Under the pieces are notes generated by a model. The model saw only the letters and a program-made list of their open reading frames with translations. It did not search any database and was not told the origin of the DNA. The position numbers and the translations under genes were made by a program. A stretch of DNA of 63,628 nt, counting the filler, from Reclinomonas americana ATCC 50394 (lineage: Eukaryota): the NCBI GenBank assembly GCA_048213135.1. It is 16 parts of 16 records of this genome, joined end to end, with 100 filler letters (N's around TTAATTAATTAA, not from the genome) between each part and the next. Parts side by side here need not be neighbours in the genome. Positions count along the whole stretch, not along the records: positions 12,308 to 19,919 come from AFZH01021826.1; 15 more parts are not named here. One strand, given 5' to 3'. Every line of letters starts with the position of its first letter. The first letter of the stretch is position 1. Positions 5,498-47,522 of the stretch are shown piece after piece.

Positions 5498-5597
5498 NNN
5501 NNNNNNNNNNNNNNNNNNNNNNNNNNNNNNNNNNNNNNNNNTTAATTAATTAANNNNNNNNNNNNNNNNNNNNNNNNNNNNNNNNNNNNNNNNNNNN
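5498..5597. other. Artificial scaffold spacer N44-TTAATTAATTAA-N44 (first of 15)
   Basis: Identical 100-nt spacers with six-frame stops start at 5498, 12208, 19920, 24567, 28624, 33928, 35717, 42566, 44115, 45464, 47401, 51012, 54238, 55774 and 61234. The cyclin, MORN5, AAA ATPase, WD40 and cyclophilin genes continue across them, so the contigs are ordered. Confidence 0.98.
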
Positions 5598-11724: not shown

Positions 11725-12921
11725 TCAAAGATCCACGGTGACGCGAGTCGTCACGAGGGCCACCGAGTTGGCGCGCGAGCTCGACGACTTCTTGAAGCAG
11801 CTGCCCAGCTTCGATGTCGGTGCCGCCTTCACACCCTCGTTCAGCAGCGCCGCAACCTCCACAACCTCCGACTCCTCAAACGTCGTGTAGTGCTGCATCT
11901 GGTACGTCCACGACTCGCCGCGCGTCTGCGCGTACTTGCGTGCCAGATACATCGACGCCGCAGCCACCAGCGATGGCTTGAAGCGCAGCATGCGGTAGTC
12001 CAGCAGAGACAGCTCCGAAATGTACGTGGCCAGACCAGCCGTGGTCTCGTCCACCTCACCCGCCTTGCACCAGCGCGACATGAACGTGTGTGCCGTGGGC
12101 TGGGTCAGACCAAAGTTGAGGGTGGCCAGAATCAACCTCTCCATGCGCAGGATCTCGTCGCGAGTGTACGTCTTGGCCGAGATGTAGATGAAGTCGCGCA
12201 CCTCAGGNNNNNNNNNNNNNNNNNNNNNNNNNNNNNNNNNNNNNNNNNNNNTTAATTAATTAANNNNNNNNNNNNNNNNNNNNNNNNNNNNNNNNNNNNN
12301 NNNNNNNTGTTGGTCTCGCCAGCAATCGAGATGACCTCGTGAGACGACCGCGGAGCAGCAGCGGCGGAAGCCACGTCTGTGCAACGAATGAATGAATGGG
12401 AAGCAACAGTAAGTTTCGAGGTTTCCCCACGAGGTAGTGGAGAGATGCCAAAGTGAACGCAACTGAACATGCTGCTTGGAGCGGCGGCGGCGGCCGTGGG
12501 AACTCCCGAGTTGGAGATCAGGCGATTGGCGGCGCCGACAGTGGCCGTGGACGAGATGGCCGCAGGGCGACGAGCCTACAGGCAAGAAGATTAGCACGGT
12601 CGGCAGGCTGAATCATAGTTTTGTGTGGCGACGACGCACCACTCCAGCGGCGGGCACAGCAGTGGCGAGGGTGGGTGCGGCCGAACGAAGACCAGCACCG
12701 GCGGTGTTGGACAGATCGGAGAAGGCGCTGCGTGCCGTCGTCGGCACAGCGTTGGCCGTCAGAGTGTTGGTAGAGAAGGCAGTGGGGGGCGGTTTGTTGG
12801 GGAGAAAAGTGGCGCGTGCATTCTCCGCGTCAACGCCGCTTGTCGCCACGCCGAAAGAACGGGTGCTGAATTGTTGCTGCTGTTGAAACAAACAATCAAA
12901 ATATACATGAGTCGACGACAT
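11725..12921 (-). CDS. Mitotic A/B-type cyclin (middle of gene in gap)
   Basis: Cyclin box PEVRDFIYISAKTYTRDEILRMERLILATLNFGL...YISELSLLDYRMLRFKPSLVAAA at 11725-12207. N-terminal destruction box RSAFSDLSN near 12705-12732. Confidence 0.9.
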
Positions 12922-13565
12922 CCGGCAAGGCGACGACAGGTGTGCGTGTACGCTCGCCAAGGATAAGGAAGCAAGCAAAGGAGAGCAGAGAGACAGACAA
13001 GAGACGCTGATGCAACCGGCGGTATGTTCGACAACTGTCTGGCGCGTGCCTACGCTGACTCTCTTTCCGAGTGTGGCACTCGTTCCGACGCGTTCCTCGC
13101 GCCTCTCTCTTCCTTCTTTCTTCCCCCGTCTCCGTCCCACTTGCGCGGTGATATTCCGTGCACGAGCACGAGCAGAGGAGTGCAAGAAGTGCGAACAGGG
13201 CGCGTGTGGACGAACAGAGGAACATGCAGAAAGGAAAATATGCGAGAGATGCGAGAGATGCAACGTACCCGAGTGGCCATGGTGCTGATGGTTAGTTAGT
13301 GGAGGTGAGAGTGGTGGTGGTGGTGTTGATTGGACTGTGGCATGCGATCAAGTCAGCAATGCGCGCAAAATAAAGGAAACAAATGTGAGCGACGAGCAAG
13401 CGCGACAAACCACGGACGGACGTCGTCGACGTGTGTGTGTGTGGGTGCGTGTGCGGTGGGGGAGGGAGGGGGGAGGGGGAGGAGAGAGCAGGAAGGAAGT
13501 GTGTGTCTCTTCTCTCACAGAATGCTTGAAAAACAAAGCGTGCCGACCGTTGGGCGCCGGAAATT

Positions 13566-16500
13566 TTACATTCTATCGGACACAAAACTGCTCGGATCAT
13601 GGCACTCGACACACACTCGCAGTGCCCGAGCCGGTCCGAGGCCCCAGGCAAAGTGCGGACAGCGCTGCCGATGTGGCGTACATGCGCCACACATGACTCG
13701 ACCGCAACACCGGCAATGATGCTGGAGGAAAAACACGATGAGACAAGTGCCGCATGGAGTTTTTCCGATTTCTTCTCAGCGTTTTGCGTACCCGGCGAGT
13801 GAATGCGGTGAAGTTGCGGCGACATCTGGCACACTCGGAGCGTGTCGAGTCTGGTTCCCAGTGTGGTGCAGGGCCGTCGCCTCGCAGTGGCGGCTTTCTG
13901 GCGAAGAACTGTCCAATGGCGTTTGCCGCGACCTCCAATTGTGCATGCTGTGCGGCACGTGCCGCCGACAGTGCCTTCCACGCCCAGCAGGTGCCCCGCG
14001 CTCGAGCGAAGATGGAAATGTGTGCACGCACTGCAAGCAAGAACAATGTCAGGCACCACGGATGCAGGAGGAGTGAAGAGGAGGAGCATGACTGCACCGG
14101 TGCGTGGTCGTGCGCGCGTGAACAGCACGCCGAGCGCCTGCAGCACGGAGCACAAGTGCGGCAGGTCAGCCGCTGGCACCGGTTCAGTTTCCAGTGCAAA
14201 ACCCAGAATCGTATTCAGGCTGACTGCCACACCGGCATCCAGCAGACGATCGGCAGCGTTGGCAGCCAACTCGGGCGACGCTGCATCACACACATGCACG
14301 CAGGTGAGTCACCGCCGCACTACCAGCATCCGGAGGGCGACTCCCCCAAGTGTACCTGAACGAATCACTTCGTGCACAAGCGCCGCAGCATGGCGGACGT
14401 GTCGCCACTCCAGGCGATCGGCGCCGTACTGCAACAGGTCGGTCACGAGCACCAGTCCACCGAAATCCACAAAGGCCGCACAGTTCGCGACATTGTCTGT
14501 GTGACTGCGGTGAGAGACGATGCACCAAAGTCAAGCAAAGATGACGGCACGGAACCAAGCAGCGCCACACACAGTCCGGCAGAGAAGACGTCGATCTTGG
14601 CTGCGGCCACCTTGGCTGCACGTCGCTGATTCTGGCACATGATAATGACGGCCTGCATCAGGCCACTGGCCATGAACATCTCCTGACTGCGCTCGTCGAC
14701 TGCGGTGCGACGCACAGTGAACATCACGCAGTTCATGCGAGGGCGCACAATTCAACGCAACTGTCTTTGCTGGTCACCGGCGTGATATCGGCGTCGTGTA
14801 TCCACCGCGTCACCATGGCGCAATCGCGCAACCACTGCCCGAGTCGTGTGGTCACCGCAAACTCAGCGTTTGCTGTGCTCATCAACTCGTTGTCGTCGAG
14901 GAAGCGGAGGAGATCACGAACAACGTCGTAGCCACCGTCGTTTACAAACACTCGTCGCAGTGGTGGCTCCCCTGCACAGTGATGTTTGTCAGTGCGACTT
15001 TATGCCATGTTTTCGCGACGATTGACGACGACGACGCAACAGGCAGTGAGCGTGTACAGCAAGTCCACCGCATACTGCATGCTTTCGTCCAGTGGCACAA
15101 ATGACTGCGGATGCGCGCACAGGGCGCGGTCCGCCACCGTACTCGGCGTCAAACGGGTGTGTGCGTGCTTGCCGGTCCCGAACGTGGCACGAACAAGCTC
15201 CAGCGCGCCATAGTTGGCCAGCATCAGTGCATGAGCACGAGCCGTCTCTGCAGTGTGGGCGATGAGACAAAGGAATGATGTAACGATTGGCGGCCGACGG
15301 CACGACTCACCGATGGTGGTCATGGAAAACTCGCGACACACCCAACACAAAAGGTGAATGAGGTGTGCCACACCGGCCAGCTCGTTGGAATTGGTCGGCT
15401 GCGACTTGGTCGCGTGATGCCACAGGTGGAGCACTCGATGGATGATACCAGAGAGCAGGCGATGCTCGGTGACAAACGATGAGACCAGCAGACGCGAGAA
15501 CGATGCTGCATCGGCGTCGCCCACTCGGTCCATGTCGTCGGTGGCCGCAGCCTCGGTACGAGACGCACCAGCAGCAACTGCGAAGAAAATAATACATGTC
15601 AGTGAGAGGCAGCGACCAGCTGCACCTCAGCGCGACCGCTCACCGCAGCACGTGATGCGCAAGCCCATCAGCGGCCAGATAAAGGTTCGCCACATTTCCG
15701 GGTGCACCGTGTCACAATCAACGTCTCCGTCGTCGCCGTCATCGTGGTGGAGGTGATGATCGTCACCGTCGACAGCGGCAGTGAGCAGCGGCGCCACTGA
15801 TGAAAGCAGAAGCGGAGCGAAACGGCGTACACTGTCGACAATGCGGCCGTACAGGTGCGGTTGGTGTGCCACGTTTTGTGCTGGCCACCAAAAGAACATT
15901 GAGCGCGCAAGCACGTGCATCCGCACAGCAGTGCAACAAACCTGCACAACACAGGCCAATCCACGTGTGCATGGCCCACCCGGCCACGTCCATGACAGAA
16001 TCACTGCCGTGCGGCACGGGATTGGGGACGCCAGCGGCGGTGGCCAGCGTTTCGAATAGCAGGTCCCATTCCGGTGGCGACACCATGAGTGCATGTTCTG
16101 CAACCCAGGTGTCAGCGACTGACAAACATGAGGATTAAGGAGAGGGAGACACACCAGTGGCGATGCGCCGACGCAAGAGGCTTGTCATCAGCCACGGCAA
16201 GTGGCCCATGCGCGACACTGGTCGCTCGAATGTGTACACCAGAGCGCGAATGAGTTCCGAGTATGGTTGGGTGCCGAGGCTCATGATGGACTGCTCGAGA
16301 ACATCCTCGGGGTTCACTGCGTTGTTGCGATGTTGAGCACAAAAAAAGACAGTGCATTGTGCAGTGTGAGAGAGGACGAGAGACGCACCCACGGGAAGAG
16401 ATACTGCCGACAGAGCAGTGATCACTTGCTCGATTCGGTCGTAGTCGGCCGAACGCACCGCAGCCTTGAGTTCCAACAGGCCGGCACCGTACGAGGGGAA

Positions 16501-19318
16501 CGAGTAATCTGCGCACAGTATGACACCTCAGTTGACGACAGTAGTCACGGAGAATCACCGCACGGAGACCGACCTTGTGCGGAACTTGCAGCAGGAGGCG
16601 CATCGGTGACCTCCTCTGGCTCCACATAGTCTGGCAGGCGGCGCAGGCCCACCGGCCCACCCAGCTGTTGATGTTCGTTTTCCACAGGTCAGTTTCGTCA
16701 GGCGCATGGCGAATGTACGAATGACGCAACTCGCTCCTCCAGTAGTGTATCCACTGAACGCAACACGGACGCCATGGGAGGCCGCAGTCGTGCATCGTGT
16801 TGCCAACATGCTTCGATTATGGCCCGCACCTCACTGCCACCACAACAATGTGGTAAGCAATGAAGTCAATACCCCAGCGCAAGAATCATACAACGCACGG
16901 GCTGCAGTCAGCGGGGATGGCCGGTCGATCTCCTCGTCGCACAGCTGCAATCACTACTTCGGGGTCCCGACAGCCAACAAAGGGAACCTGCGTTGGAGGG
17001 ACGGGGTGAGTGAATGCAAATGTCGATGGTGAGCGGTAGGCGTCTCTAGAGCTCACCTTGCCAGTAATCATTTCCAGTAGAATCATTCCTACAGTGTCGG
17101 TGAGCAAAAATGTCTGACAGTGCCGACACACTCCGCAATCACACACCAAATGCGTAAACGTCAGCGGCGGCTGTCAACTCTGGTGTGGCCTCCAGCAACT
17201 CAGGGGCCAACCATAGCACGTCACCGGCGATCAGGGTGCTCGCAGTGGAGTACGACGAAGAAGTAAACGAGCGAGACCAGCTGGCTGCCTCACTGTGTGC
17301 GCGCGCGAGCATGGGATCAACAAGTGAGCACTCCATGAATGAGGCACGTGGAACCAACCTCTTTGGTATCGGCATCCCGTAATCAAAGAGCCTACCGAAG
17401 CACAGTGGTGAGCGCGACGACGGAGGACAGGCGCACACGCAACGAAGCAATCAGTACGCCACTTGAGTTGTCGATTGTCGGCGACAAGGATGGTTTTCGA
17501 TGACAGCGAACCGTGAATCACACGATGACTGTGCAGGAAGGCCAGGCCGCATGCCACATCTGCCAGCGCGCGAGTCAGCAGTCACAGTTATCACTAAACG
17601 ATCGCAGATTGCGGCGTCAATGTACACTGTCGACGCACCTCGTGCCAAGGCCAGAGTTTCACTCTCCGTGAGGCCACCCTCACTCGAATGGAGGAGGCTG
17701 AACAGTGTCTGTGGACGACCACACATCGATGAGTGAACAACTGAGCTGCGTACATGCATGCATGCACACGTACCCCGTCGGGCAGCATCTCCAGCACTGT
17801 GCACGCGTGCGCGGCCTCGTCGCACACAGCATAGCAGGGTGCCAGATTCGGGTGAGTGAGAGCCGACAGTCGACGAGCTTCGTCGTACAAGTGCCTGTGA
17901 AACGCAAGCTTTGAGTCAACCGTGCACCGCCAGCAGCAACAAATGGAATGCACGCACCCCGCAGCCAGCTCTGTCAGTGTGCCAAATCGTCGAAGTGCCA
18001 CCGGAAAGCCACTGCAGGTGCCAGCCAGCAGCTCCGGCACAAAGAGGTCTACTGGCGCCGCACTCTCGACTTCCGAGTTGCGTACGTACCGGAAGTGGGG
18101 GAGCGAGGTTTCTACGCGGACGCCAGTGAGCGCGACAATCAGCAGAGAGTTCGCGATCTGCTGCGCGAGCGCACCTCGATCGAGTGCGCCAAGGAGCTGC
18201 ACGGTGGCGTGCATCACGGCATCCCCTGTCGCAGTCTCCTGTGACTCCACGAGCTCTTCGATGCGCGCCACGGCCGTCTCCAGCTGCCAATGGCGGAACG
18301 TGTGAGTCTGCGACACACTGGTGACAGTACACGAATGAGGTGTATACCTCGGCCGTGAAGGTGGCCAGCTTGAGCGCAGCTGCACGATTCAGGTACACAG
18401 TGGCCAGTGCGCGTAGCACCAACTCCAGATTGCAGCTCGCCTCCTCATAGCCGATTCCAAAGCGAGCGCGGAGCATTCGCACTCGCACCTCGAGTGCCAC
18501 CACGTGATCTACACGCAGAGAATAAGAACGCAACGACCCCCCATTCGCCTGACAAGTCGACCGCCACGCACCCAGATACGGCTGCTCCAGCAGCACAGCA
18601 GTGGTCTCGAGTTGCGCCTGCATCTCGGACGCCGAGGCCACGCCACACGCCTCCATCATGACCTGCACATGCTCCGCATCGTGCGACACCTCCGACGCCA
18701 GCTGCTTCAGCACCAACGCCAATGCCGCCCGATCGGTCGCTGTCTCATCACACACAGACAGATGAGCCCGCAGCGCAAACCAAAGACACCACACACGCAC
18801 ACACGAGAGAGACAAGTGCCTCAACTCTCGTCCCGCACGTCGCGCTCCCACCGAAACTCGCTCCGCAAGCACAATCCCAGTCGCTCCTGACACGCCTCCA
18901 GCTGCGCCGAGACCGTCGCCACATCACAGTGCCCCAGAGTCGCTGCCAGCTGACCTCTCCGTCGCAGCAGCCGTCGCAGCCACACCCACGATGCACTCAC
19001 CAGTGGCGATGCAGCGCCATGATGCTCCAAGATCATCTCAATGTGTCGCACGCACTCGCCAACGCGATCCACCACGCCCAGCAACGGTACATCCAGCAAG
19101 CCACGCTCCTCCAGATCTATGCGGCGAGGATCAGAGACAAAGACAGCGAAAGAGCATGACAGGGACACAAGCGACAAACCTTGCACTGATTCAATGATCA
19201 GCACCGCTCTCTCGACCAAGTGGCGGCATTTGGCTCCATGCGCGCGCACCGACTTGACTTGCGTGTTCAACCGCTCGACGCTGTGCGTCAGTCGACGCAC
19301 TCGGTCGTCGCTGCTCAT
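13566..19318 (-). CDS. MLKL-like N-terminal helical domain + TKL-type pseudokinase + ARM-like repeats + FYVE finger
   Basis: Hand-spliced in one frame from ATG 19318 to TAA 13566. N-term VKSVRAHGAKCRHLVERAVLIIESVQ. Kinase fold VALRRF...HPNL...GLAFLHSHRVIHGSLSSKTILV...KLFDYG...WLAPE...DVYAFG...CWQHDARLRP. FYVE WEPD..CARC...RRHHCRCCGRVMCGAC...RVCVEC. Confidence 0.8.
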
Positions 19319-19374
19319 CCGACACCACAAACAAGAAACGGTCCTGCGCGTCCGGCAATCTCACTCGTCACACA

Positions 19375-19830
19375 ATGTTGCGCAGCGCATTGACTCTCCG
19401 CAGCAGCACTGCTGCCACCAGTGTGCGCGGCTTCTCCGCCGTCGCCGCTGCCGCTGCCAACAACAAGGCAGCAGCAGCGTCGAGCGAGCTGGCCATCAAC
19501 TTGGAGGTGCGTGTGTGTCTGTGTGACACAGACGGGCATGTGATGGCCGCCTCTCTCTCTCTCCCACACACAAACACGCACACGCAAACACACACATGTG
19601 GTATTCTCCACTGCCTTTCTCCATGCGCCTCTCCTTGTCGCCAGTGTGCGAGAACATTGTGTGTTTTTTTCGACTGCATCACTCACTCTCTCACACAGGG
19701 CAAGTTCAAGCTGCATGTGCCCGAGAACTTCCCGTTCCCGTTCGCTGGACCCAAGACGTCGACGACGACCACCAAGGAGGAGTCGCTGGCACTGTTGCGA
19801 CTGATGCTGGTGGTGCGCCGTGTCGAAATG
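19375..19830 (+). CDS. PDHA: Mitochondrial pyruvate dehydrogenase E1 alpha subunit, first two exons (rest in gap)
   Basis: Mitochondrial presequence MLRSALTLRSSTAATSVRGFS, then GKFKLH...GPKTSTTTTKEESLALLRLMLVVRRVEM, the typical E1-alpha N-terminus. Confidence 0.8.
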
Positions 19831-20840
19831 GTGCGTGAGCAGATCCCCTCGTTCCCTCGACATTGACACTGGTGCATTGTTGAGGAGTCGACTGATTCGC
19901 CCTCTTGTGTGTGTGTGAGNNNNNNNNNNNNNNNNNNNNNNNNNNNNNNNNNNNNNNNNNNNNTTAATTAATTAANNNNNNNNNNNNNNNNNNNNNNNNN
20001 NNNNNNNNNNNNNNNNNNNACCGCCATCGGAAAAATCAATCAGCAACACGACAAGTCGGGCGGGAAGAGGAGAGTGAGAGATACACGGAGAGAAGGGTGC
20101 GAGAGAGGCACGCGTGCGCATGATTGGAATAGAGAGAGAGACGGCAGAGATGGGCAAAAAAGAGGCATGATACCATCGCCACAAGCACGCGTTGTCAACG
20201 GCATGCCACCTGATTCGCATAATAGCCAAATCATTGCCAACTACATAAACGCAAGACGGGCAGATGCCAACAGACACAAGACGCTCACAGACATAAACAA
20301 AGAAAGAGAGAGAGGCAGTGGGCGCCGCGAAAGAAGAGAGAATGATGAGTGAAGGAACAACAAGAGACAGAACAAGCAGAAATCAGAGGCACGTGCCCGA
20401 TTGCCCGAAAACATGAAAAGGAAAGACGACAAAGAGCAGCAAGCAGGAAGGTGCAAGACTCACCCGAGTTGTCATGTTGATGTTGTTGTTGTTGTCGAGA
20501 CCTGTGCTTGATTGCGGAAGAGAAGGGGGGAAGAGATGGCACGCGTTGCGCCGAGGTTTGGTGAGCACCAACTGTGTGTGCAGCGTGCCAGTGAGAAACA
20601 CCGCGAGAGAGAGAGGCAAGCAGGCAAGACGACAAGAAGAGAAGAAGAAGAAGAGTGGCACGCACCTGGAAGGGAAAGGAAGAAAGAGGTTAGAAAGCAA
20701 GTTGCCTTTGCTCGAGCGCAGGTTGAAAAAGTCGCGATGAAATGAACGGCCGTTTCGGTGCGTGCTTGTCGCCTCTCTCTCCATTGCCGCCCTTTACCCT
20801 CGTGCCACCAAGCCAACGTTACTTCCGCCACTTCAATCAG

Positions 20841-23790: not shown

Positions 23791-25050
23791 ATGGATGTGA
23801 TCGGCGTCAAGTATGAAGGCAGCATCGTCAATGGCCGGTCTGTGTTACGCACGTTCACATACTGCACATCACAGAAAGACTCACGCGATCACGCAGAATG
23901 GAGGGCCATGGCAAGTTCACACTCGCAGATGGGCGAGTGTACGAGGGTGGATTCAAGGATGGCATGTTACGTGTCTTCTCTCTTCTCCTCTGCCTCACAC
24001 ATACACACACACACACTCTTCCTCTGCCTTCTCTCTCACTCTCTCTTCTCCTTTTTCTCCCACTGACACCACCCACTCAGGTTCCACGGCAAGGGCACGC
24101 TGACGTTTCCCGACGGAGCGCGATACGAGGCCGAGTGGGATGAGAGCAAGGAAGTGCGTGGACGCTTCTTCTTTGGCGATGGACTCGAGTATGGCGAGTT
24201 CCCCAACCAGCACGGACGTGTTTTGGATGTGTCGTCGTGGGGCTACAGCACCAAGGTGGATCGGCGATTCTACACGGAGATCCTGGGCAAGATCTACCCC
24301 GCTGGTGAGTGTGTGAGGGGGAGGGAGGGAAGGAGGAGAGAGGAGGGAGGGAGGAGAGTAAGAGAGAGGCAGTGACTGGAGGAAGATGAGTGGCACTTGA
24401 AGCAGGAGAGACACTGAGAGAGGATGAGAATTGCGTTGTCGTGGGAACTCGACTTGTCAGCTGGACTTGTTTTTGTCGTGTGAAAGGGAGAAGCGGAGAG
24501 AGGAAGGGGGAGGCAGTGACTGGAGGCAGCTAAGAGCCATGCGTTGTCGCGGAAGCTCATGCACTNNNNNNNNNNNNNNNNNNNNNNNNNNNNNNNNNNN
24601 NNNNNNNNNTTAATTAATTAANNNNNNNNNNNNNNNNNNNNNNNNNNNNNNNNNNNNNNNNNNNNGGTGACTGGAGGCTGCTAAGAGCCGTGCATTGTCG
24701 TGGGAACTCGACGTGTCAGCTAGACTGCGTCGTGTTTAAGGGAGAACCGGAGAGAGGAGGAGAGAAGAGGGGAGACAGTGACCGCAGGCAGGAGAGAACA
24801 GTTCGCTGTCGCGGAAGCTCGACAAGTCGTCGTGCGACACAGTGATTGGAAGCAGGTGGCAGAGACGGGAGTCTCAGAGCAGTTGACTGAGACTTGTGGT
24901 AGAAGAGAACAAATGCGCTGTCGTGGAAGTACGACAAGTCAGTTCGCGGCTTACTCTGTCTTGGAAGTCACGACATCATGCAGACACTCTCCACCTGCTC
25001 ACTGCGAACATGCATCTCTTGCTCGTTTGCTCTCTCTGTCTCATTCCTTC

Positions 25051-25455: not shown

Positions 25456-28400
25456 CTACATGAAGTACGTCAGCGTCTCTTTTCGTCGGTTGCCTCCTTC
25501 ACCGTACATCTCGTTCCACTGGCGCAGCTCCGTCATGGTCTGTGCGTCTTCGCACACACTGGCACTGACCTCCTTTTGTGCCTTCTCAAAGTCCGACAGT
25601 CGCAGCGGTCGTAGCTCCGGTGCCGGTGCTGTGGGATCTGGCGGAGCGACAAATGCACCCTTGCTGATCTGCTTGGCCTCGTCGGCGAGGAACTCGCGCA
25701 CAGGCTGAGGTAGCTCGGTGAGCAATATGCGAGAGAGCACACATACAGGATGGTTCGAAAATACCTGATAGGCTGCGCACACACACAAGTTGCGCAGGTC
25801 GCTGCCCGAGTAGCTCGGCGTCATGCGAGCCAGGTCGAGCATGCGCAGCGCCGGATCCAACTGTTCATCCTTCAGGATCACCTCAAAGATGCGCACTCGC
25901 TGCTCCTCGCTCGGCGAGTCGACGAGGATGCGACGAGGCATTCTCCTCAGCACGGCCTCGTCCAGGTCGAACGGGCGATTGGTAGCACCGAGTACCAACA
26001 CGCGCTCTGCATTCATTGAAGTGTGTGAGTGCGCAGACAAGAAACACAGCGATCTGTCGACATGCACTCGTACCAGTCTCCTTGCTCTTCAGACCGTCCC
26101 AGCCCATCATAAACTCATTCTTCATCTTTCGCATCGCCTCGTGCTCGCCGCGACTCGCCCTCTTGCCGAGCATGCTGTCGATCTCGTCGACGAAAATCAC
26201 ACACGGTGCCAGCTTGCGAGCAAGCGTGAACACGGCCGCGGCCGCCTTTTCCGCCTCGCCAAACCACTTGCTGGTGATGGCGGCGAGGTTGACGTCTGTG
26301 GGAGGGTGGGTGGAGGGTGAGCATTGCATAGAAAAGAGGGAGAGGATGCGAGAGCGCGGGCGCAACTGAGAAAGTTGGCGCCACTCTCTGTGGCCACAGC
26401 CTTGGCCAACATGGTCTTGCCGGTACCCGGCGGACCAAAAAGCAGCACGCCCTTCACCGGCTTTGACAGTGTCGACCGCCGGAAGAGCTCCGGTCGCTGC
26501 AGCGGCAACATGACGAGCTCACGCAGAGAATTCTTCGTCGACTCCAGAGCACCAATGTCTGCAACAGCAAAGTGAGAATGCGCGCAGTGACATGATGAAT
26601 CTCAGCAGACTGCCCGCCACACACCATCAAAGTGCACTCCAATGTCGTCAGCCATCACCACATCCGCCAGCAGCCGCTGCTCGAATTCGTTCGAGGTTTC
26701 CACATCCTGCAGCGATTTCTGCAAGCCATCACAATAAAGCGCGTGAGCGGCGAGACAACATTCACACCGACTGAGATAAAGAGAGAAAGGTTAGTGCACG
26801 AAACTGGTGGCGAGCGCTCGCGCAACAACGAGTCGTACAGATTCATGGCGGCCACCATACTCTCGCCTGACAGCACCAGCTGTCGCACCGGTGCGGACCC
26901 TTCGGCTGACGCCCCTGCCGCTGCAGTAGTAGTAGTAGTTGTTGTTGTTGTTGTAGTTGTTGTTACTGCAGCAGTCTCCGAGTCACCCGTCTCCATGGGC
27001 GCGACTTCTGCTTCCACCACCGTCTTTGCAGGCTCCTCGGTCGCCGCCTCAACCTTGTGTGACTTGGAGAGCTCTGTGCTGAGGGCCCACGCGCAGACAG
27101 TTTCCACTGTGGACTTGCTCAGGGTCTCTTTTCGAAGCTGTGCCTCCGGCAATGAAATGCACTGCATGCGGTTGCGTGCCATGACCCACTGGAACAGATT
27201 TGCGTTGCGACGACACCGATCCAGCTCCGTGTCGCGTTGCATCTGTGTGTCCCACTCGGCGGCCTGTGCCAGTGTCATTCGTTGAGCAACGACAACCACG
27301 TGAGAAGACACACACACACGCACAAACCTGTGCCCAGTGCGCTGGCTTGGTGATGGCCACGCGATGCGGGAACAGATTCTCCACCAAATGCTTCATCTCC
27401 ATTGTGTTGCGCTCGAACAGCATCAAGCCACTGATGACCGCAACAGATGAGCGGCAGACACAACAGTGGAATGTACACGCACAGACACAAACACACGCAA
27501 CTCCATGTCGTTGACCATGGACGACACGTTGGAGGCGGCAATGCGCTGAACAATGCGACTGCTCGGCCGGCCGTCGCGAGGTGGCTCCGGAACTGCGACA
27601 CAGAAGGACATCGTATAAGAAACTTGGCGAATAAACAGAAAGAGGAGCGTGTACGCGCCTGCCACAGACGCTGTGACTGCGAGAGCGTTGCTCGAACTCG
27701 ACGATTCAACTGGAATGCCCAAGACGCTCGACACTGCAGGGGAGTGAGCGAAGAGCAAAGCGCGCAGCACACTTGTTATCACGCGCACATTGACCACCGG
27801 GACCACCGAGACCGCCAAGCAGCAACGACGACAGCGACCGCGATGACGACGGAGCAGAGCTCGGATCCAAGTCGTTCACCTTGGAGGCTGCAACACAGCG
27901 TGAGCGACGCTGAATACAAGAACGCTGCAACAGTCGCGACCGCATACTCACCAATCACGCAAACTTGGTGACCTTGAATCTTGGACATGAAAGCGCGGAG
28001 ATCGCGCATGAAGTGTGGCGTGGTGGACAGAATCTCGTCCACCGCTGGTATGTACACGACAATCTTCTCCTCGGCTGGCCGACGCGCAATCTCCTCAAAG
28101 AACGCACGACTGCACGCACATCCGACGGAGGTGAGCCAATTGCGTCGTGACAATGCAGTCGAACAAGTACGCAACTACCGCAACGCCGTCTTGGTGACAG
28201 AGTCGGAAGCCACCGCCGATGCCAGTTCCGACCGACTCGAGCTCCCCGAAGAACGCATGGCCAAACGAGACGCTGCGCAAGTGGTGAGTGGACGACAGGG
28301 CAAGCATGTGCGATGAACAGAACAACGCACCAGGTATCATACGAACGGAATGCACCGACGAAGACGACGACGACGATATCGATGGTGGCGGCGGCGGTGG

Positions 28401-31400
28401 TGGCATGACTGGCGAACCGGCTGCCGCCAACGCGTCGTACATACTGATCACCACACGGCGTCGCGCACTGCTGTTGCTGCTGCCGCTGCCTCCCATGCCC
28501 GACATGGACGAGGAGGATGCAGATGGAGGCATTGGCGGCGGGCGTGGCGGCGACGGTGGCATGTTCTTGTCTGTCGCGCATTACTCCGCAAGTCAGAGGA
28601 GTGCACACCGCAAAGAGGGCGACNNNNNNNNNNNNNNNNNNNNNNNNNNNNNNNNNNNNNNNNNNNNTTAATTAATTAANNNNNNNNNNNNNNNNNNNNN
28701 NNNNNNNNNNNNNNNNNNNNNNNCGTGCGAGCAAACTCGACCTTGGCGCCCACGCGGCAGCTGGCGCCACTGCGGGAGCCGGAGATGTTGGAGCCGCCGT
28801 CTGCAAGAGGTGACAAAGAGCAGCTTATTAATTAACAGTAGAGCTGGCGTGCAGACGATTGCTGGTGCACCAACCTCGGCGCTCGCCGGCCTCCTGCTCC
28901 TCCATTTCATCGGCAATGCTGCGCGAGGCAACAGCATCCAGCCGGTACAAGTCGGCGCCAAAATGATGCGCCAGCGCCATGCACAGCTGCTCATTGTAGC
29001 GCGTGGTTCCTGCATTGAGCAACAGAGTGAGAGACATTCGCAATCTATCGTCGCTCAGTCACACTCAACCTTTCGGCGACACCAGAAGAATGCGCTGACT
29101 GACAGACGACAGGTGTTCGATGTACTGCGCTGCTTGCGGGTTCTCGAGGTACAGACCCATGGATCGCACAAGCTCTTCCCGAACGGCCGGACTGCACGTG
29201 CGGTGAGTCCTCTCTGCCTACCTCAGCAAGGCCGAAGCTCTGGTGGGAGCGACGCAACGAGAGATGATACGGGAAGGTGTCGAGTGTCACGCCGAGATCC
29301 GTGGCACGGGTGACGGCCTCGTGAAGCATGGCACGCACGGCAACAAGAGCCTCGCGGCGAGAATCGTCGTCTTCCACCACAGCGCCGCCGTCGACGGCAC
29401 TCTCCAGAGCACTCGACAACTCATCACCACTGCCGGCGAGTCCACTCTCTGCGACACGTAACAGTCGATTAACAACCGCAAAGGGGTGCATTCATGAAGA
29501 TGGCTACTCACCGTCCTTGTCGTCGGCCAGCAGCGAATCGGTGCTTGCTGCCTTGCTGCGTTTGAGTGAAGACTCCGACTGCCGGGCACAGTGACAGTGA
29601 GGGTGCGGTCGAAAGAGGTGCGTGGAATTCTCTCCAAACCTCATCCTTGGTGACAATGTCTCCACGCATGTCATCGAGGGTACGCTTGCGCGTCAGCGGC
29701 TCCCCGACGCTTGTCGAAGGTGCTGCTGCTGCTGTTGGTGGTGTTGTAGTTGGCACACTCTCTGATGCCGTCGTCGTCTCACTCATCTCGGTATCCTCGC
29801 CGCTGGTGACGGTGACAGCAGTTGGTGCGGCAGACATGGTCGTGTCGGTGGCGGCCACCTCGGTGGTCTCCAGTGGTGTCACTCGCGGAGTGATGGCAGT
29901 CGCCTGAGATGTGTGCTTGGAGGCGGGTATGTCGTCGTAGCGCACAAAGATCTACAACAAGCATGCGTTCGGCAAGGGAGAGTAGAAGAAGTGGAGGAAA
30001 GCGTGAGAGATGGACACGCAACAAACTGATAGACGGTTGATCCTAGAACACTGATCTCGTCGCCCGAGTGAAGCGGCGACTGCTGCTGCTTGCGCAGCTG
30101 GCGGCCGTTGATCAGAACAGGCGTGCGATTGGTGTTGGAGCGCATCAGCGGCTGCCCGTGCAGCACATGGATGGAGCAGAGTGGTTTGATCGGCATGCGC
30201 GAATCGCGGAGCATCAGGTCACACTGCCGCGCCCGCCCGACAGAGAAACTGCTGTTGCGTAGCACAATCGATGCCGATGGAATGCCGGTGGGACGCGAAA
30301 ACTGCGGCACCAGCACACCCCACGGTCGCCCCTCGCCGCCGCCGCTGCTGTTGTCGCCCGGCAAACCACTGTCGCCCACCTCCAGCGAGGACGACAAGGA
30401 GGACGGGAGAGCAGGAGGCGGCGGCGGAGGTGGCGGCTGACCAGCAGCAGCACTGGAAGCAGAAGAAGCAGCAGCAGGAGTCGATCGCATGAGTTGTCGA
30501 ACACAGGCCTCTGCATCCTCAACGGTTCGGATCGGACGCCATCGATTTGCACCACCACCACCACCACTGGCGGCAGCACCGCCCTCCCGTCGCGCCATGG
30601 CCGCCGCCATCAGATCCTGTCGCGACAGAGCCGACTGCACATACAACAGGAGAAAGAGAGAGAGAGAGACAGACGATAAGCAAACACACGCGCCACACAA
30701 CCAATCATCGCACAGCCAAGCACCAACTCGGACAATCGTCGACGCTGCACACAACACACCACAACAAAAGTCAGCCATCAAAGCACCAAGCAAGAACACG
30801 ACACAAACAAACAAAACACACCGTCACAGCATCGGCCGCCAAGGAAGGCGCATCGGCATCTGCAATTCCCGCGCACACAGCGGTCAGACTGAATCGAGAC
30901 ACTGACGACAGACAAGACGCACTGTGCCCACACGCACTGCTCTCTCTGACAAGCACATACACGCACGCACCTTCACTCTGTCGCACTGGCGCCTTGTTGA
31001 CCGCGGCCGCCACTGCCGCGTTGACAACAGAGCCCAGCAGAGAACTCAGCTGTTCAATAGTGAGCACAGTGAGCACGCATACACTCATAGACAGTGTGTG
31101 AGGAAGAACAAAAAGAGGCGCGCGCGAAAAAAACACGTCACCTGTGCCTCATCAGTGTTGCCACTGACAGCAGCCGCGGCGGCTGCTGCGGCTGCGGCAG
31201 CTGCAGCGGCGATTACAGTAGTGGTGTTTACAGAACGTGTTGCGGGCTGCTGTTGTTGTTGTTGTGAGGAGGATGCTGTTGTTGGAGGTGCGTCTTCGTC
31301 CATGGATTGTGGAGGTGGATTGTCGACGTCGAGTTGTCTCTGCGTTGTTGAGGTGGCAAGAGCAGGCGGTGGGGGTGGTGGTGGGGGTGGGGTAGGAGCA

Positions 31401-33903: not shown

Positions 33904-34027
33904 AGAGAGAGAGAGAGAGAGAGAGAGNNNNNNNNNNNNNNNNNNNNNNNNNNNNNNNNNNNNNNNNNNNNTTAATTAATTAANNNNNNNNNNNNNNNNN
34001 NNNNNNNNNNNNNNNNNNNNNNNNNNN

Positions 34028-34775: not shown

Positions 34776-37700
34776 TCATGACGCACCATTCGCCGGCGGC
34801 AACCTCACCACGGCCGCCTTGCGAGGACTGCTCATTGCGTGCGGCGGCGCAATCGACGGACCCGGATCATTGCGTGCGGCGGCGGCGGCAGTCACCGGCG
34901 GAAACACCGACGGTGGCGGCGGTGGCGGCGGCGTGGGCTCCATGCCCTCGCCACCCTCTCCCCCCTCCATGACCACGGTGCCGTTTGCCGCCACTCTCGC
35001 GTACAGCTGCGAGGCGTTGCTGCCGGCGAGCATGCGCCGAATGGCCGGCACCGCCACGGTATCAGAGGAGCGACGACGCGGGGTGCTGTCGGTGGCCACG
35101 CGGTACAGTTTGGTGTCGCGACCGACCGTGTGCCTGCGCACAGCGAGGTGAGGGCGTCACGCAAAGGGAGGAAAAGGTGGTAAAATGTACGCACGTGGCT
35201 GGAACACTGGTGGCATCCGGACCGGCGTACACTTGCTCCGGGGCACTGCGCTGCATGCGTCAGCGACAAGTCAAGAAAGAGAAAGAGAGCTGGGCTGCGC
35301 AACTTTGTCTCCAGCCACTTGTAGTATTGTTCCACACGAGTTGGTGAGCCAACTGCCCCCGTGGCAGGCTGCACCGGCTGCACAACTGCCAGTGTGGAGG
35401 GCGGGGAGTGAATGGTCGTTCCGTCTGCGAGATATGAGGGCAAGAGATGAGTGCATAGAAAGGCACGATCAACTCTCACTTGTCAGCATGCAGAACTCTC
35501 ACTCGTCAGCATGTAGAGAAAGAAAGTGAGAGACAGAGATCAAGACAGAGGGGAAAGGAAGGAGAACTCTCACTCGTCAGCATGTAGAGAAAGAAAGCGA
35601 GAGACAGAGAGCAAGACAGAGGGGAAAGGAAGGAGTACTCTCACTCGTCAGCATGCAGAGAGAGAAAGCGAGAGACAGCAAGAGAGCAAGACAGAGGGGA
35701 AAGGAAGGAGAACTCGNNNNNNNNNNNNNNNNNNNNNNNNNNNNNNNNNNNNNNNNNNNNTTAATTAATTAANNNNNNNNNNNNNNNNNNNNNNNNNNNN
35801 NNNNNNNNNNNNNNNNTTCACTGAGTACGAGTTGCCGATTATCTCATCATCTCTCTTTTTCTCTCAAGGTGTACATGCTACCTCCATCTTCTCCACTCTG
35901 CTTGCTTTGAACCTGTTCATCTCAAACCACCAATGACCACATATGGGCAGCTCTCGTCATCCCTGCTTTTAACTTCGCAGATCACGCTCTATCCACCACA
36001 CGCTACCAAACTGGCTCTAAGTTTTACAGAGCACGAACTGCCAACAGCAGCCAGGGTGCCCGCGATCTGCTTCTCCACGCTCTCTCCGTTCTCCTCTCTC
36101 TGTGTGCTGTCGACTCTCTTGTCTTAACTCCTCACCAGCTAGAAACACCACGATGTGTACGATGCGTTTTCGACTACGAGGAGCAACAGGAGACGGACAG
36201 AGCAACTCCATGCTTACAAAACTGCTCAGCAGCGATTGCAGCTACTCACACCCCTCAACGAGAGAAGAGAATGAACTGGAGACAGACGGACATTGAGTGG
36301 TAGAGAGTACGAATCGGCTTGTGAGGTGGACTTGCTCTCTTATTCACCTTGATCCACCGTATTGCGATCACTGATTCTGTTCGTCTCCCTCTCTTCTCCT
36401 CCTTCTTCCCCCTCCCTCCCTCCCCCTTCTCCTCCCACCACTCACCCCCTTCCCCCCCGCATGCTTCCTCGGCGACCCCACATGCGCCGCTCGCGGTGAC
36501 AGCGTGGCCGGCGGCATGGACGGAATCGGACCCGATCCCTCATTCGCCTGCGTATTACCCACCGCTCAGCGGACATTCTCCTTCTCTCCTATGCTCACCC
36601 ACTTCAACGAACCAGCAACAGGTCGACACCGGTGGGCGCATTGCGACCACAGGCGATGCATCGGAAGCGAGCAGCAGACGCCACCTCATCCTCGTCCCCA
36701 AATCTGCGTCAGTCCCAACATGAGTAAGGAGAACGACTCACAAGGTCCCCTTTCCCCCCACAAATGACTCAACAATTTCATGCCGGCAAACACGCGCTTG
36801 TCGAGCTTCTCCCGTCGCAGCACGTCGACATGCACGACAATCTCCTTCACAATCTCGGAAATCGCATGCGATTCGTTATCGCGGTGCTCCCGGTCGTCGG
36901 CCACCTCCTCGCGCAGCTCCTTGACAAAGGCCTCGAACACGTCGGCATGCACCGCGGTCTCCGTCACGCGATCCACATCTTCCATCCATGGCTGGGAAGA
37001 AGATAGGATAAGTGGAGGAAGAGGAAGGGATGAGAGTTGACAAGTATGTACTAATCTCCGTGGTGAGAACATACAACGCGAACAACAACACACAGGAACT
37101 GCATACTTGCAGTTCAAACAACTCGTGGGATGCTTTGACGGAAAGAGTGCGGGAGGTGGGGGGAATAGAGTGAGGTGGGGGGAAAAGGTGACTGTACCTT
37201 GCTGTTGATGCTTTCCTGCAACTGGGCAAGAGTCGATTGACACCGGTCGAGTTCTGTTCGGCCTTGGTGAGCGAGTGCACCAGCAAAAGAGAGGAACAAA
37301 ACTACCGCAACGTCGTTTCATCTCCACCCGCTTCACTTCCACATCCGTGATCTTGCGATCCAGGCGCTCCACGTCGCCCTCGCTGGGTGGCTGTCCTGTA
37401 CCCCTCTCGTCGTCGTCATCCTGCAGAGAGCGAGGTGAGGGCGAATACGAGAAAGTGCATGCGCATGATCGGCAACGAGAGAAGAGAGTGCGCGAGGAAG
37501 AACAGGCAGATAAGAGAGGCAAGAAACGCAACATGCGATGTCGTCAGATCCACCGTCACGCCCATTTCACTCTCAAAGTGCGCCTCCAGCGTGCGCATTC
37601 TCGATTGCAGTTCGCTGCAAGGCACACACTCCTTTAGATGCATGTCCGCAGCTCGACGCAGTGATTCATACGCAACGTTACGCTTCTCTTGAACGACTTG

Positions 37701-42565: not shown

Positions 42566-42665
42566 NNNNNNNNNNNNNNNNNNNNNNNNNNNNNNNNNNN
42601 NNNNNNNNNTTAATTAATTAANNNNNNNNNNNNNNNNNNNNNNNNNNNNNNNNNNNNNNNNNNNN

Positions 42666-43620: not shown

Positions 43621-44826
43621 TCAGAAACAAAGATGGGGATCACAGAAACACCGGTGCACCACGACTGCGGCCTCCTCCACGATAAAGCAGCGCAGAACCA
43701 TCTCCGGCAAACACCGAGAATCCACCTCCTCCTCCTCCGTTCCTGCCCCTTCTCGCTGCATCTCTTGGACAGCACGCATGGCCACATGCGCCGCGTCCAT
43801 CTCCAGTCGAGCAAGACCACACGGCGTTGACCACACGCGCACTGTGCCATCGCCACTCCCGCTCACGATGTGCTGGCCATCGGGGGTGATGGCAACACAG
43901 AAAACGCGTCCGGTGTGTCCCTGCAGCCGTTGCACTTCTTTGCCGCTCGCCAGCGACCACACACGCACTGTCATGTCGTCGCTGTCAGTCACAATGTGTT
44001 GGCCATCGGGAGTGATGACGAGGGACATCACTTCTCCTTCTCCGGGGTTTCCTTCAAATCGTCTCAGTTCTTCCCCAGTCGCCAGCGACCACACTCGCAC
44101 TGTGTTGTCAGAGCNNNNNNNNNNNNNNNNNNNNNNNNNNNNNNNNNNNNNNNNNNNNTTAATTAATTAANNNNNNNNNNNNNNNNNNNNNNNNNNNNNN
44201 NNNNNNNNNNNNNNCTCGTCGTAACTCGCACTGATAATGAATTGCCCATCGGGGCTGACCGCCACTGCAGTCATCCATTCTGTGTGTCCCTCCAATTGCG
44301 TCACTTGCGCGCCACTCGCCAGTGACCAGACACGCACTGTTGCGTCCCGACCTCCACTCACAATTAGTTGACTGTCGGGAGTGACGGCAACAGAAGGCAC
44401 GCCGCCAGCGTGTCCCTGCAGTCGGTGCACTTGCTCGCCACTCGCCAGAGACCACACGCACACTGTGCCATCGGTTCCTCCGCTCACCGCGTACTGGTTA
44501 TCCCCAGAGACCGCGACAGACAACACCTGTTCAGTGTGTCCCTCCATTCGATGCTCTTCTTCGCCACTCACCATCGACCACACGCGCACGGTGCGATCGT
44601 CACCACCGCTCACAATGTGCCGGCCGTTGGGCGTGACGGCGACACACCACACAGAGGAAGTGTGGCCCTTGCACAGTCGCACTTCTTGCCCACTCGCCAG
44701 CGACCACAAGTGCACTGTTCCGTCTCCGTCGCCGCTCACAATGTGCTGACCGTCGGGAGTGGTGGCGACAGCGAGGATTGCGTTTTTGTCGCCGTGCGGG
44801 AGAGTGCGGCAGCAGCGGAAGGCCAT
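43621..44826 (-). CDS. WD40-repeat protein, paralog B (spans gap 44115-44214), intronless
   Basis: MAFRCCRTLPHGDKNAILAVATTPDGQH... with the same repeats and C-terminal tail as paralog A. Confidence 0.88.
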
Positions 44827-45351
44827 AGGGAGAGAAGAGAGGGAAGGGAAGGAGAACTGGGAGAGACAGGGAGAGAGGAGAGAGGGGGAGAGAGGGAGGA
44901 GAGAAGAGAGGGAGAGGGATGACAGGGGAGAGGAGAAGGGAGAACAGAGGGTGATGTTGTTGCTGTTGCTTCTGTGTGTGCGTGTGCTTTGTGAGAGGAC
45001 AGAATTCTGTCAGTCCTCCTCTGACGGAGACGTCCTCTTCGCTCTTCGTGCTTGCGAGTCTCAAGGTGTTTTCGACGAGGACATGATGCTACTGCATGTC
45101 TCTTTCTGTCAGGCGTCGACGTTGATGCTGCATCGCCGCTGGATTCAAGTGAGCAAGCGACTCGCGATCGGCGATCTGGAAGTGGGGTGAGTTGTCTTCA
45201 TTCGATCGCAACAAGCCGCCAACTGCCCAGCGTAATCTACAGTTTTAGTCGAAGGAAAACACACGAGACTTGTTGCCGATCACTGGTGATGCTCATGTTG
45301 TGCATTGATCCGTGAAGATCCTATTATTATTGCCAGCTGCATGTCCACCGC

Positions 45352-46543
45352 TCAGAAACAAAGGTGAGAATCGCGGAAACACCGGTGCACCACGACTGCG
45401 GCCTCCTCCACGATAAAACAGCGCAGCACCATCTCCGGCAAACACCGAGAATCCACCTCCTCCNNNNNNNNNNNNNNNNNNNNNNNNNNNNNNNNNNNNN
45501 NNNNNNNTTAATTAATTAANNNNNNNNNNNNNNNNNNNNNNNNNNNNNNNNNNNNNNNNNNNNTCCTCCGTTCCTGCCCCTACCCGCTGCATCTCTTGCA
45601 CTGCACGCATGGCCACATGCGCCACCTCCATCTCCAGTCGAGCAAGACCACACGGCGTTGACCACACGCGCACTGTGCCATCGCCATCCCCGCACATGAT
45701 GTGCTGTCCATCGGAAGCGACGGCCACAGAGCACACCTCCTCAGCGTGTCCCTGCAGCCGTTGCACTTCTTTGCCGCTCACCAGCGACCACACACGCACT
45801 GTCGTGTAGTCGCAGTCAGTCACAATGCGTTGGCCATTGGGGGTGACGACAATAGACATCACTTCCCCAATGTACCCCCCAAACAGTCTCAGTTCTTCCC
45901 CAGTCGCCAGAGACCACACTCGCACGGTGCAGTCATCACTTCCACTCACAACGTGCTGACCATCGGGGGTAACAGCCAAAGCCGCCACCCAGCCTGTCTG
46001 CCCCTTTAACTGTCGCACTTGCTCGCCACTCGCCAGCGACCAGACACGCACGATGTTATCAGTACCGCCGCTCACAAGGAGATGACTGTCGGGAGTAATG
46101 GCGACAGACCGCGTGAAACCATCATGTGCCTTCCACTGCCGCACTTGTTCCCCACTCGCCAGCGACCACACGCACACTGTGCAGTCCTCACTCCCACTCA
46201 CAACTAGCCGACCGTCGGGAGTGATCGCCACACACAACACCGAATCCTCGTGTCCCTCCATCATCTCATACACCCTCTCGCCACTCACCACCGACCACAC
46301 TCGCACTGCGCAATCGTCACCGCCGCTCACAATGTGCCGGCCATCGGGAGTGACGGCGACGCAGTTCACAGCGTACGTGTGCCCGTCGTAGTGTCGCACT
46401 CGCTTCCCAGTTGCGAGTGACCACAAACGCAATGTTCCGTCTCGTTGACCGCTCACAATGTGCTGACTGTCGGGTGTGATGGCGACAGCATCGACCAGGA
46501 CGTTGTCGACGTGGGAGAGAGTGCGGGAGCAGCGGAAGGACAT
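45352..46543 (-). CDS. WD40-repeat protein, paralog C (spans gap 45464-45563), intronless
   Basis: MSFRCSRTLSHVDNVLVDAVAITPDSQH..., seven WD repeats, tail ending HRCFRDSHLCF* (TGA at 45352-45354). Confidence 0.9.
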
Positions 46544-46664
46544 AGGGGGAGAAGGGGGGAGAAAGGGGGGGAGAAAAGGGGAGAGAAAGAGAAAGAAAGA
46601 GAGAGAGAGAGAGGAGGGAGGAGAGGAGAGAGGGAGAGGGAGAGGAGAAGGGAGAGCAGAGGGG

Positions 46665-46711
<47 letters not shown>

Positions 46712-47522
46712 GCTTCTGTGTGTGTGCGGAAGGAAAAGGGAAAAGGAAAGTGGAGAGCAAGGAAAAGGGTGAGAGAAGTGGCAAGGAGGGCGGAGAGCAA
46801 AGAAAAGGAGGGAAAGAGAGCAGTGTGCTTGCAGATGAAGATGACAACTGCAAGAGAGAGACAGACACACACAGAATGCAACACAATACAAATGGTTGCA
46901 TTGGTGCTCGCGTCTCATTGTCCACACTTTCAACTTTTTTTGTTGTTCCCGAGAATCCACAAATGTCCAAGACGAACGTGTTGCGTTTCCTTTTGCCACA
47001 CACTCTTGCACACTCTTGCATACACACACGTGCACGCACTTTTTTTGTTGTTCCGTTGTCTGTGGTGCCATGTGCCTTGTGTGCCTTGACACACACTCAC
47101 ACGCTTGCTCACACACAAAGCATTGTCGTGCGTGCGTCTGCTCGTCTCCTCTCAGTTGTCTTATGTACTCATGTGCTGTTTGTTGAGCGAGAGAGAGTGA
47201 CTTTGAGCTGTCTCATGGTGTCTCAATCACGCTCTCTCTCTCCTCTCTCTCTCTCTCACGCACACACACACAAACACACTCTCTCCTCACTCACTGCCTC
47301 TTTCCCTTCACACTTCTCATTGTCGTCTTTTGTTGTCTCGGAGATGCGAGAAATGTCTGCCAACTTTTTGTCTTTTTTTCCCCCCTCACTCACACACGCA
47401 NNNNNNNNNNNNNNNNNNNNNNNNNNNNNNNNNNNNNNNNNNNNTTAATTAATTAANNNNNNNNNNNNNNNNNNNNNNNNNNNNNNNNNNNNNNNNNNNN
47501 CACTCTCTCTCTCCCATAATAG

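Follow-up and report, generated by a model that had tools for sequence, protein, structure and literature searches.

A multidomain pseudokinase with a canonical FYVE finger and orphan helical regions encoded by one intron-rich gene of the protist Reclinomonas americana

According to PMC12881547 and PMC9815663, executioner proteins that combine a four-helix bundle with a pseudokinase have to date been reported from animals and seed plants, and related bundles are described on fungal and plant immune proteins. According to the same sources, the SesA, Helo_like_N, HeLo, Goodbye, and MLKL_NTD domains have a common four-helix core. The N-terminal domains of the plant MLKLs and of the fungal HeLo, HELL, SesA, and Goodbye proteins are treated in PMC9815663, PMC12881547, and 10.1101/681015. 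Kinases with FYVE domains or C-terminal Armadillo repeats are already known in protists, the examples in PMC3019232 and 10.1101/168187 being the Phytophthora infestans TKL kinase PITG_10645 with 10 C-terminal Armadillo repeats, the AGC kinase PITG_01365 of the same species with a FYVE domain, and the PAKA kinases of Stentor, also with FYVE domains. Here, we describe a gene of Reclinomonas americana ATCC 50394 that lies at positions 13566 to 19318 on the minus strand of the window, i.e., the whole stretch of 63,628 nucleotides (nt) that was analyzed and on which all positions are counted. This single intron-rich gene encodes a pseudokinase and FYVE protein of ~1,400 residues, that is, a multidomain pseudokinase with a predicted lipid anchor.

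From the N terminus to the C terminus, the ~1,400-residue protein, which would be cytosolic, is predicted to comprise an orphan helical head, an acidic linker, a dead kinase fold of the tyrosine kinase/tyrosine kinase-like (TK/TKL) type, an orphan region of ~700 residues, and a FYVE finger. In the reading that we favor, to which we assign a probability of roughly 0.5, this protein is a pseudokinase switch or scaffold that is docked on phosphatidylinositol 3-phosphate (PI3P) and has non-lytic helical interaction regions. The FYVE finger, in which three PI3P motifs are intact, would anchor the protein to the membranes of endosomes or phagosomes. As in other pseudokinases, the dead kinase fold would serve as a switch between conformations, and phosphorylation of the activation segment may set this switch, while the helical N-terminal and middle regions would bind partners or oligomerize. 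Lytic activity would not be required for any of these functions.

The gene model was built by hand from stop-to-stop open reading frames (ORFs) in the three frames and consists of 25 exons separated by 24 introns of 48 to 95 nt, all of which have GT-AG ends. The reading frame opens with an ATG at 19318, with an in-frame stop ahead of it, and closes with a TAA whose last base is 13566. The coding sequence of 4,182 nt specifies 1,393 amino acids, or 1,410 if intron 2 is kept; throughout, residues are numbered according to the 1,393-residue model. The exons, all on the minus strand, are located at 19318-19180, 19116-19001, 18949-18839, 18743-18572, and 18508-18348 (exons 1 to 5); 18283-17774, 17708-17639, 17559-17463, 17391-17147, and 17088-17057 (exons 6 to 10); 16987-16899, 16833-16719, 16664-16574, 16508-16389, and 16316-16155 (exons 11 to 15); 16097-15942, 15880-15644, 15577-15311, 15247-15020, and 14971-14762 (exons 16 to 20); and 14699-14573, 14504-14356, 14280-14098, 14030-13792, and 13721-13566 (exons 21 to 25). 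In a leave-one-out codon-usage test, the model frame scored best for 24 of the 25 exons; only exon 25, which is rich in Cys and His and is validated by Pfam, deviated. Moreover, the pieces of the PK_Tyr_Ser-Thr profile keep their order across exons 6, 8, 9, and 12 despite the differing reading frames of these exons, and the break in the FYVE profile coincides exactly with intron 24. These three independent checks, i.e., codon usage, the order of the kinase profile, and the split of the FYVE profile, support the gene model and with it the single spliced frame put forward in the original prediction, which had been made from this DNA alone.

The T content is 29.2% in the introns and 21.3% in the exons, and a CTNAY-type branch motif, as counted by eye, is present near the 3' end of 23 of the 24 introns at a distance of 8 to 35 nt from the AG. 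One intron is doubtful, namely the 51-nt intron 2 (18950 to 19000, minus strand). Because this segment is in frame, stop-free, and exon-like in composition (T, 19.6%; G, 47%) and has no CTNAY-type branch motif when inspected by eye, it is probably coding sequence rather than an intron, in which case it would add 17 residues after residue 85. More generally, 11 of the 24 introns have a length divisible by three, and five of these (introns 1, 2, 4, 14, and 18) contain no in-frame stop either; retention of any of the five would leave the frame intact. We also noticed a 42-codon Ala/Leu-rich ORF at 19368 to 19496 (minus strand), which ends in a stop ~50 nt before the ATG of the gene and may be an upstream ORF in the 5' leader. 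This ORF was also considered as an upstream exon and was rejected in that role, as the sequence, read by eye, contains no phase-compatible donor-acceptor pair.

The pseudokinase domain (16719 to 18052, minus strand; residues ~311 to 619) is encoded by exons 6 to 12 and was identified using Pfam profiles and alignments to kinases in the PDB. In exon-level Pfam searches, segments 45-86, 106-142, 149-192, and 231-256 of the PK_Tyr_Ser-Thr profile (PF07714) matched exons 6, 8, 9, and 12, in that order, and the best piece had an E value of 1.9e-5 and a score of 24.5 bits compared to a cut-off of 23.1. Because PF07714 outscored PF00069, the domain is assigned by its sequence to the TK/TKL type. Exon 8 had 366 matches to PDB kinases at E ≤ 10, with a best E value of 1.1e-4, and vIHGSLSSKTilv aligned residue by residue to HGDLKPSN of 9gmp, HRNLNSHN of LIMK1, and HGNVCGRN of TYK2 JH2. 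In the catalytic loop HGSLSSKT (residues 442 to 449; 17492 to 17515, minus strand), the Asp is replaced by Ser444, the loop Lys by Ser446, and the Asn by Thr449. The DFG motif reads DYG at residues 462 to 464 (17376 to 17384, minus strand), 13 residues from the Thr at the Asn position, which is the canonical spacing. The APE motif is located at residue 521. DYG and APE enclose a long activation segment (residues 465 to 520; 17208 to 17375, minus strand), which is a candidate regulatory phosphorylation loop. The 57 residues 465 to 521, which begin directly behind DYG and include the initial residue of the APE motif, contain 14 Ser/Thr residues.

In the N-lobe, the alpha-C Glu368 follows the sequence VALR (residues 328 to 331) at a distance of 37 residues, the beta-3 position could instead be that of R352, and a degenerate GTCSGF (residues 321 to 326) precedes VALR. 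Under either assignment, i.e., VALR331 or R352, there is no Lys in a plausible beta-3 position. Because HGSLSSKT replaces HRDLKxxN, DYG replaces DFG, and the beta-3 Lys is absent, the kinase fold is, as judged from these residues, catalytically dead. The original prediction had read the fold as dead based on the change of HRDxxxxN to HGSLSSKT and of DFG to DYG, and both changes are borne out by the direct reading and by the alignment of the loop to PDB kinases. It had also reported a change of VAIK to VALR and the absence of a Gly loop; the missing Lys holds for both candidate positions, while the assignment of VALR to VAIK is ambiguous given its distance to Glu368 and the alternative at R352, and the status of the Gly loop is ambiguous given GTCSGF.

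The searches with the kinase exons also bear on how close the domain is to MLKL. Among the 60 matches listed of the 366 obtained for exon 8, MLKL was absent. Exon 12 had weak PDB matches to TK/TKL kinases; here, MLKL ranked 15 to 20 of 92, with E values of 0.64 to 0.69, behind EphB1, MLK4, TIE2, and CTR1. These comparisons suggest no specific relationship of the kinase domain to MLKL over other TK/TKL kinases, although they have low power because all matches are on short exons. Because the N-lobe is strongly diverged, exon 6 had matches in the PDB only at chance level (top match, lumazine synthase; E, 0.021), and exon 9 had one irrelevant match. Among longer proteins, none of 5,966 candidates matched exon 6 at E ≤ 1e-3, and none of 539 pattern matches to exon 6 in the JGI metagenome contigs was confirmed.

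The WxxD, (R/K)(R/K)HHCR, and RVC motifs of FYVE domains go along with PI3P binding, and pairs of zinc-binding Cys residues further characterize fingers of this type. In the R. americana protein, the FYVE zinc finger (13596 to 13863, minus strand) is split by intron 24 (13722 to 13791) and contains all three motifs, i.e., WEPD at residue 1320, RRHHCR at residue 1341, and RVC at residue 1377. Residues 56 to 79 of exon 24 matched positions 1 to 24 of the FYVE profile (PF01363; E, 1.2e-3; 19.4 bits), and residues 1 to 42 of exon 25 matched positions 25 to 63 (E, 1.1e-6; 29.1 bits; cut-off, 27.8). The two halves of the profile meet at intron 24, in agreement with the FYVE domain that had been predicted for this protein. 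Both the profile and the motifs place the finger among the FYVE domains of the PI3P-binding type, and the finger is canonical. Because WEPD, RRHHCR, and RVC are all present, PI3P binding is its expected property.

The orphan N-terminal helical domain (18839 to 19318, minus strand) is encoded by exons 1 to 3 and covers residues 1 to 122, or 1 to 139 with intron 2; exon 1 is basic with a net charge of +4. It is followed by an acidic helical linker (18053 to 18743, minus strand; residues 123 to ~310), which is encoded by exons 4 and 5 and the start of exon 6, has a net charge of −9 over residues 123 to 300, and had no Pfam match. This linker of ~180 residues lies in a "brace"-like position between the head and the kinase fold and may function accordingly.

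The N terminus had no match to any Pfam family at E ≤ 10 when queried as a 160-residue read-through or as exons 1, 2, and 3 separately, and this includes the profiles for fungal HeLo (PF14479), Helo_like_N (PF17111), and SesA (PF17107). Using phmmer against the PDB, we obtained two irrelevant matches and none to MLKL, HET-s, or plant CC-R domains; an exhaustive phmmer search had no match among 1,835,955,588 representatives at E ≤ 1e-3, and in a word-indexed search of proteins of similar length, none of 211 candidates matched at E ≤ 10. Because these searches yielded no homologues, AlphaFold was run on the single sequence, which also carried the read-through of introns 1 and 2. The resulting model, with a predicted local distance difference test (pLDDT) score of 50.1, is all helical and unfit for fold comparison, and residues 3 to 44 are drawn as one long helix, not as a hairpin.

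In the ESM-Atlas, the nearest neighbors of residues 1 to 160 were Ascomycota clusters, and the labeled ones among them carried SesA (PF17107, 10%) and Helo_like_N (PF17111, 10 to 24%). The top score was 0.91 with 165 shared features and a recognition of 2252, on a scale on which 91% of known-family proteins reach 2300. For residues 68 to 160, the neighbors were Helo_like_N (PF17111, 11%), a cluster with HeLo (PF14479) in 86% of the members (score, 0.85), and SesA. These values are to be read against chance, as scores of 0.9 occur in 4 to 10% of shuffled proteins and agreement of families among the top ten in a third of them; the numbers of shared features (165 and 158) are both below 170, and the two queries overlap and have no control region. 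SesA, Helo_like_N, and HeLo are the only families that any search placed near the N terminus, and these Atlas neighbors are the sole positive sign, and a weak one, for a HeLo/MLKL-like N terminus. Based on these data, we consider the assignment of the N terminus to the HeLo/MLKL-like superfamily tentative, with odds slightly below even.

The original prediction had recognized an MLKL/HeLo-like residue pattern in the N terminus. The letters that it quoted are indeed present, while their match to such a pattern is putative; the C..L..R part alone turns up in 7.4% of shuffled versions of residues 1 to 122. The long pattern is rare in shuffles (1e-4), but it was written from the same sequence and hence is no test. 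Residues ~21 to 42 may be similar to helix 2 of human MLKL, and the H-G-x catalytic loop may be similar to that of MLKL.

The kinase fold and the FYVE finger are separated by an orphan middle region of ~700 residues (13864 to 16664, minus strand), which extends from exon 13 to the first part of exon 24. In 12 exon-level queries covering residues 620 to 1310, no Pfam family, repeats included, matched at E ≤ 10, and self-BLAST of the region detected no internal repeats. The matches of its exons in the PDB were at chance level (DARPin, E of 0.073; Smoothened, 0.12; ZER1, 0.66; voltage-sensor phosphatase, 0.74). AlphaFold of exons 18 and 19 with intron 18 read through yielded helices only with a pLDDT of 42.2, which is too poor for a fold search, and these two exons had no match at E ≤ 1 among 4,886 candidates of longer proteins. 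Three "G-G-hydrophobic..L." motifs resemble Armadillo (ARM)/ankyrin cores, with 0.35 expected in shuffles; the pattern was defined post hoc and is no test. The ARM-like repeats that had been proposed for this region are not supported, as there was no Pfam match, the PDB matches were at chance level, and no internal repeat was detected; neither the ~42-residue tandem repeats of the Armadillo families (PF00514 and relatives) nor an alpha-solenoid was identified by the exon-level Pfam searches, self-BLAST, the PDB searches, or the low-pLDDT model. Overall, apart from the kinase fold and the FYVE finger, every part of the protein is an orphan by sequence search, in collections whose coverage of this lineage is uncertain.

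Among the described systems, animal MLKL, the executioner of necroptosis, consists of a four-helix bundle, a brace, and a pseudokinase. The R. americana protein has the same order of head, linker, and dead TK/TKL-type fold, and, as in MLKL, residues of the catalytic loop are lost. It also shares with the MLKL family a kinase fold C-terminal to the head that lacks the catalytic residues (HGSLSSKT, DYG, and no beta-3 Lys). The affinity of MLKL for phosphoinositide membranes has a counterpart here that is predicted from the FYVE finger. The R. americana protein differs in its length, which is ~3 times that of MLKL, and in having an additional 700-residue region and a FYVE finger, neither of which is present in MLKL; it is not known to have a RIPK3-type partner, its linker has ~180 residues, its kinase fold has no specific relation to MLKL, and its N-terminal fold is putative. 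The plant MLKLs and the fungal HeLo, HELL, SesA, and Goodbye proteins resemble it in having helical domains at the extreme N terminus of multidomain proteins, whereas the partners of the fungal domains are NLR or amyloid modules rather than a pseudokinase and a FYVE finger. Fungal HeLo-type members usually begin with a hydrophobic first helix, whereas the N terminus here is charged and has no Pfam match at the threshold given above. ULK4 is a pseudokinase with helical repeats, and ULK4-type pseudokinases and the JH2 domains of JAK kinases are similar to the R. americana protein in that a dead kinase fold next to extended helical regions would have a scaffolding or switching role. The similarity extends to the TYK2 JH2 loop HGNVCGRN, which aligns to HGSLSSKT; however, the homology is limited to the kinase fold, and neither ULK4-type nor JAK proteins have a FYVE domain. 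The Phytophthora and Stentor kinases likewise combine, in a microbial eukaryote, a kinase fold with a FYVE domain or a C-terminal helical-repeat region. Those kinases are not described as inactive in the accessible text of the sources and have one accessory type each, while the protein described here has a dead kinase fold and an added orphan N-terminal domain, and repeats in its middle region are unsupported.

Docking of a pseudokinase switch or scaffold on PI3P, the reading that we favor, is supported by the gene model, the dead catalytic loop, and the FYVE finger and is helped by an N terminus that in these searches has no profile or sequence tie to MLKL/HeLo and by the precedents in protists. 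Several observations weigh against it. The Atlas neighbors of the N terminus are consistently fungal SesA, Helo_like_N, and HeLo, which points toward a lytic protein, and the four-helix core of these families is shared with MLKL according to PMC9815663. The layout of an extreme N-terminal helical domain, followed by a helical linker and then a pseudokinase, is MLKL-like. Finally, a scaffold is largely the default reading for pseudokinases. In the alternative to which these points lead, a HeLo/MLKL bundle of ~120 to 140 residues would be restrained by the linker together with the pseudokinase until a signal, e.g., phosphorylation of the activation segment, frees the bundle to permeabilize the PI3P membrane on which FYVE docks the protein, and this would serve cell death or defense directed at phagosomes or endosomes. 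The evidence for such an MLKL-like executioner includes Atlas scores of 0.85 to 0.91 to the SesA, PF17111, and PF14479 clusters across the two queries (residues 1 to 160 and, with PF14479, 68 to 160), the four-helix core that these families share with MLKL_NTD according to PMC9815663 and PMC12881547, and the MLKL-like order of helical head, helical linker, and pseudokinase. The position of the head at the extreme N terminus and the basic exon 1 are consistent with MLKL and not specific to it. However, the N terminus matches neither a Pfam family at E ≤ 10 nor MLKL, HET-s, or CC-R in the PDB, the AlphaFold model, with its pLDDT of 50.1, has a single helix instead of a hairpin at residues 3 to 44, the Atlas values for recognition and shared features fall below 2300 and 170, respectively, with scores of 0.9 also reached by shuffled proteins, and the kinase is not specifically MLKL-like in the searches with exons 8 and 12. 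Taken together, we regard an executioner of this type as unlikely.

The gene structure and the state of the catalytic site allow two further readings. The kinase gene could end after exon 12, with the middle region and the FYVE finger forming a separate gene. This reading would fit with exon 13 encoding a short low-complexity linker of 30 residues and with intron 12 being just 54 nt long and running, if read through, into an in-frame stop after 13 codons. However, GT-AG ends and a branch motif, CTGAC, are present in intron 12, the exons from 13 onward (with exon 25 validated by Pfam) have the same codon usage and are best in the model frame, the downstream exons have no start codon before residue 702, and the intergenic space would be <100 nt, all of which make two genes improbable. 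Some kinases work with displaced catalytic residues, as exemplified by the WNK-type kinases, and the fold described here has kept the DYG Asp, the alpha-C Glu368, and the APE motif. An atypical active kinase with noncanonical residues, docked on PI3P and phosphorylating local substrates, is nevertheless very improbable with the catalytic Asp and the loop Asn both replaced (S444 and T449), no Lys in a plausible beta-3 position, and a degenerate Gly loop.

In the titles and opening lines of abstracts covered by our literature search, there is no description of a HeLo/MLKL-like domain combined with a pseudokinase and a FYVE domain in a protist. We consider it doubtful that the gene encodes an MLKL-type killer outside animals, plants, and fungi, i.e., a HeLo/MLKL-like bundle that a pseudokinase keeps under control and that FYVE brings to PI3P membranes. 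If it did, permeabilization would be aimed at endosomes or phagosomes instead of the plasma membrane, and the "bundle plus pseudokinase" design would have been assembled independently or would be very ancient. Were the N terminus a HeLo/MLKL-type bundle, the protein would be a protist version with its own PI3P address tag, which would bear on the age of the killing module and suggest how damage could be steered to the membranes of internal compartments. Should the N terminus be an unrelated helical domain, the protein is one more lineage-specific multidomain pseudokinase, which is useful for annotation and otherwise ordinary.

The gene sits entirely within contig AFZH01021826.1 (window positions 12308 to 19919), which is flanked by artificial linkers (N44-TTAATTAATTAA-N44) at 12208-12307 and 19920-20019. 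The window consists of 16 short contigs chained by 15 linkers of this type (44 N, TTAATTAATTAA, 44 N), and, including the two flanking ones, these are located at 5498-5597, 12208-12307, 19920-20019, 24566-24665, 28624-28723, 33928-34027, 35717-35816, 42566-42665, 44115-44214, 45464-45563, 47401-47500, 51012-51111, 54238-54337, 55773-55872, and 61234-61333. Because the linkers between contigs are artificial, gene order across them is meaningless, and the other genes in the window provide no neighborhood context. A tblastn search of the window with the protein model gave eight high-scoring segment pairs outside the gene, all with E ≥ 0.37, and an Rfam search over the window had no match.

Other coding sequences were noticed on the remaining contigs. 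Highly regular WD40 repeats are present on the two contigs at 44215 to 45463 and 45564 to 47400 (minus strand), with Pfam WD40 E values of 4.7e-63 and 2.7e-53, and ahead of the longer WD40 ORF lies a tract that, in the frame of this ORF, would encode 16 Asn residues in a row. Exon-like ORF pieces of an AAA+ ATPase are located at 25459 to 26601 (minus strand; PF00004, E values of 1.7e-14 and 1.8e-9, in addition to an AAA lid), and an FHA-like piece at 29879 to 30823 (minus strand) had E values of 1.5e-3 for FHA and 1.1e-5 for Yop-YscD_cpl. Finally, a piece of a cyclophilin-type isomerase (E, 2.5e-7) is located at 48021 to 48992 on the plus strand.

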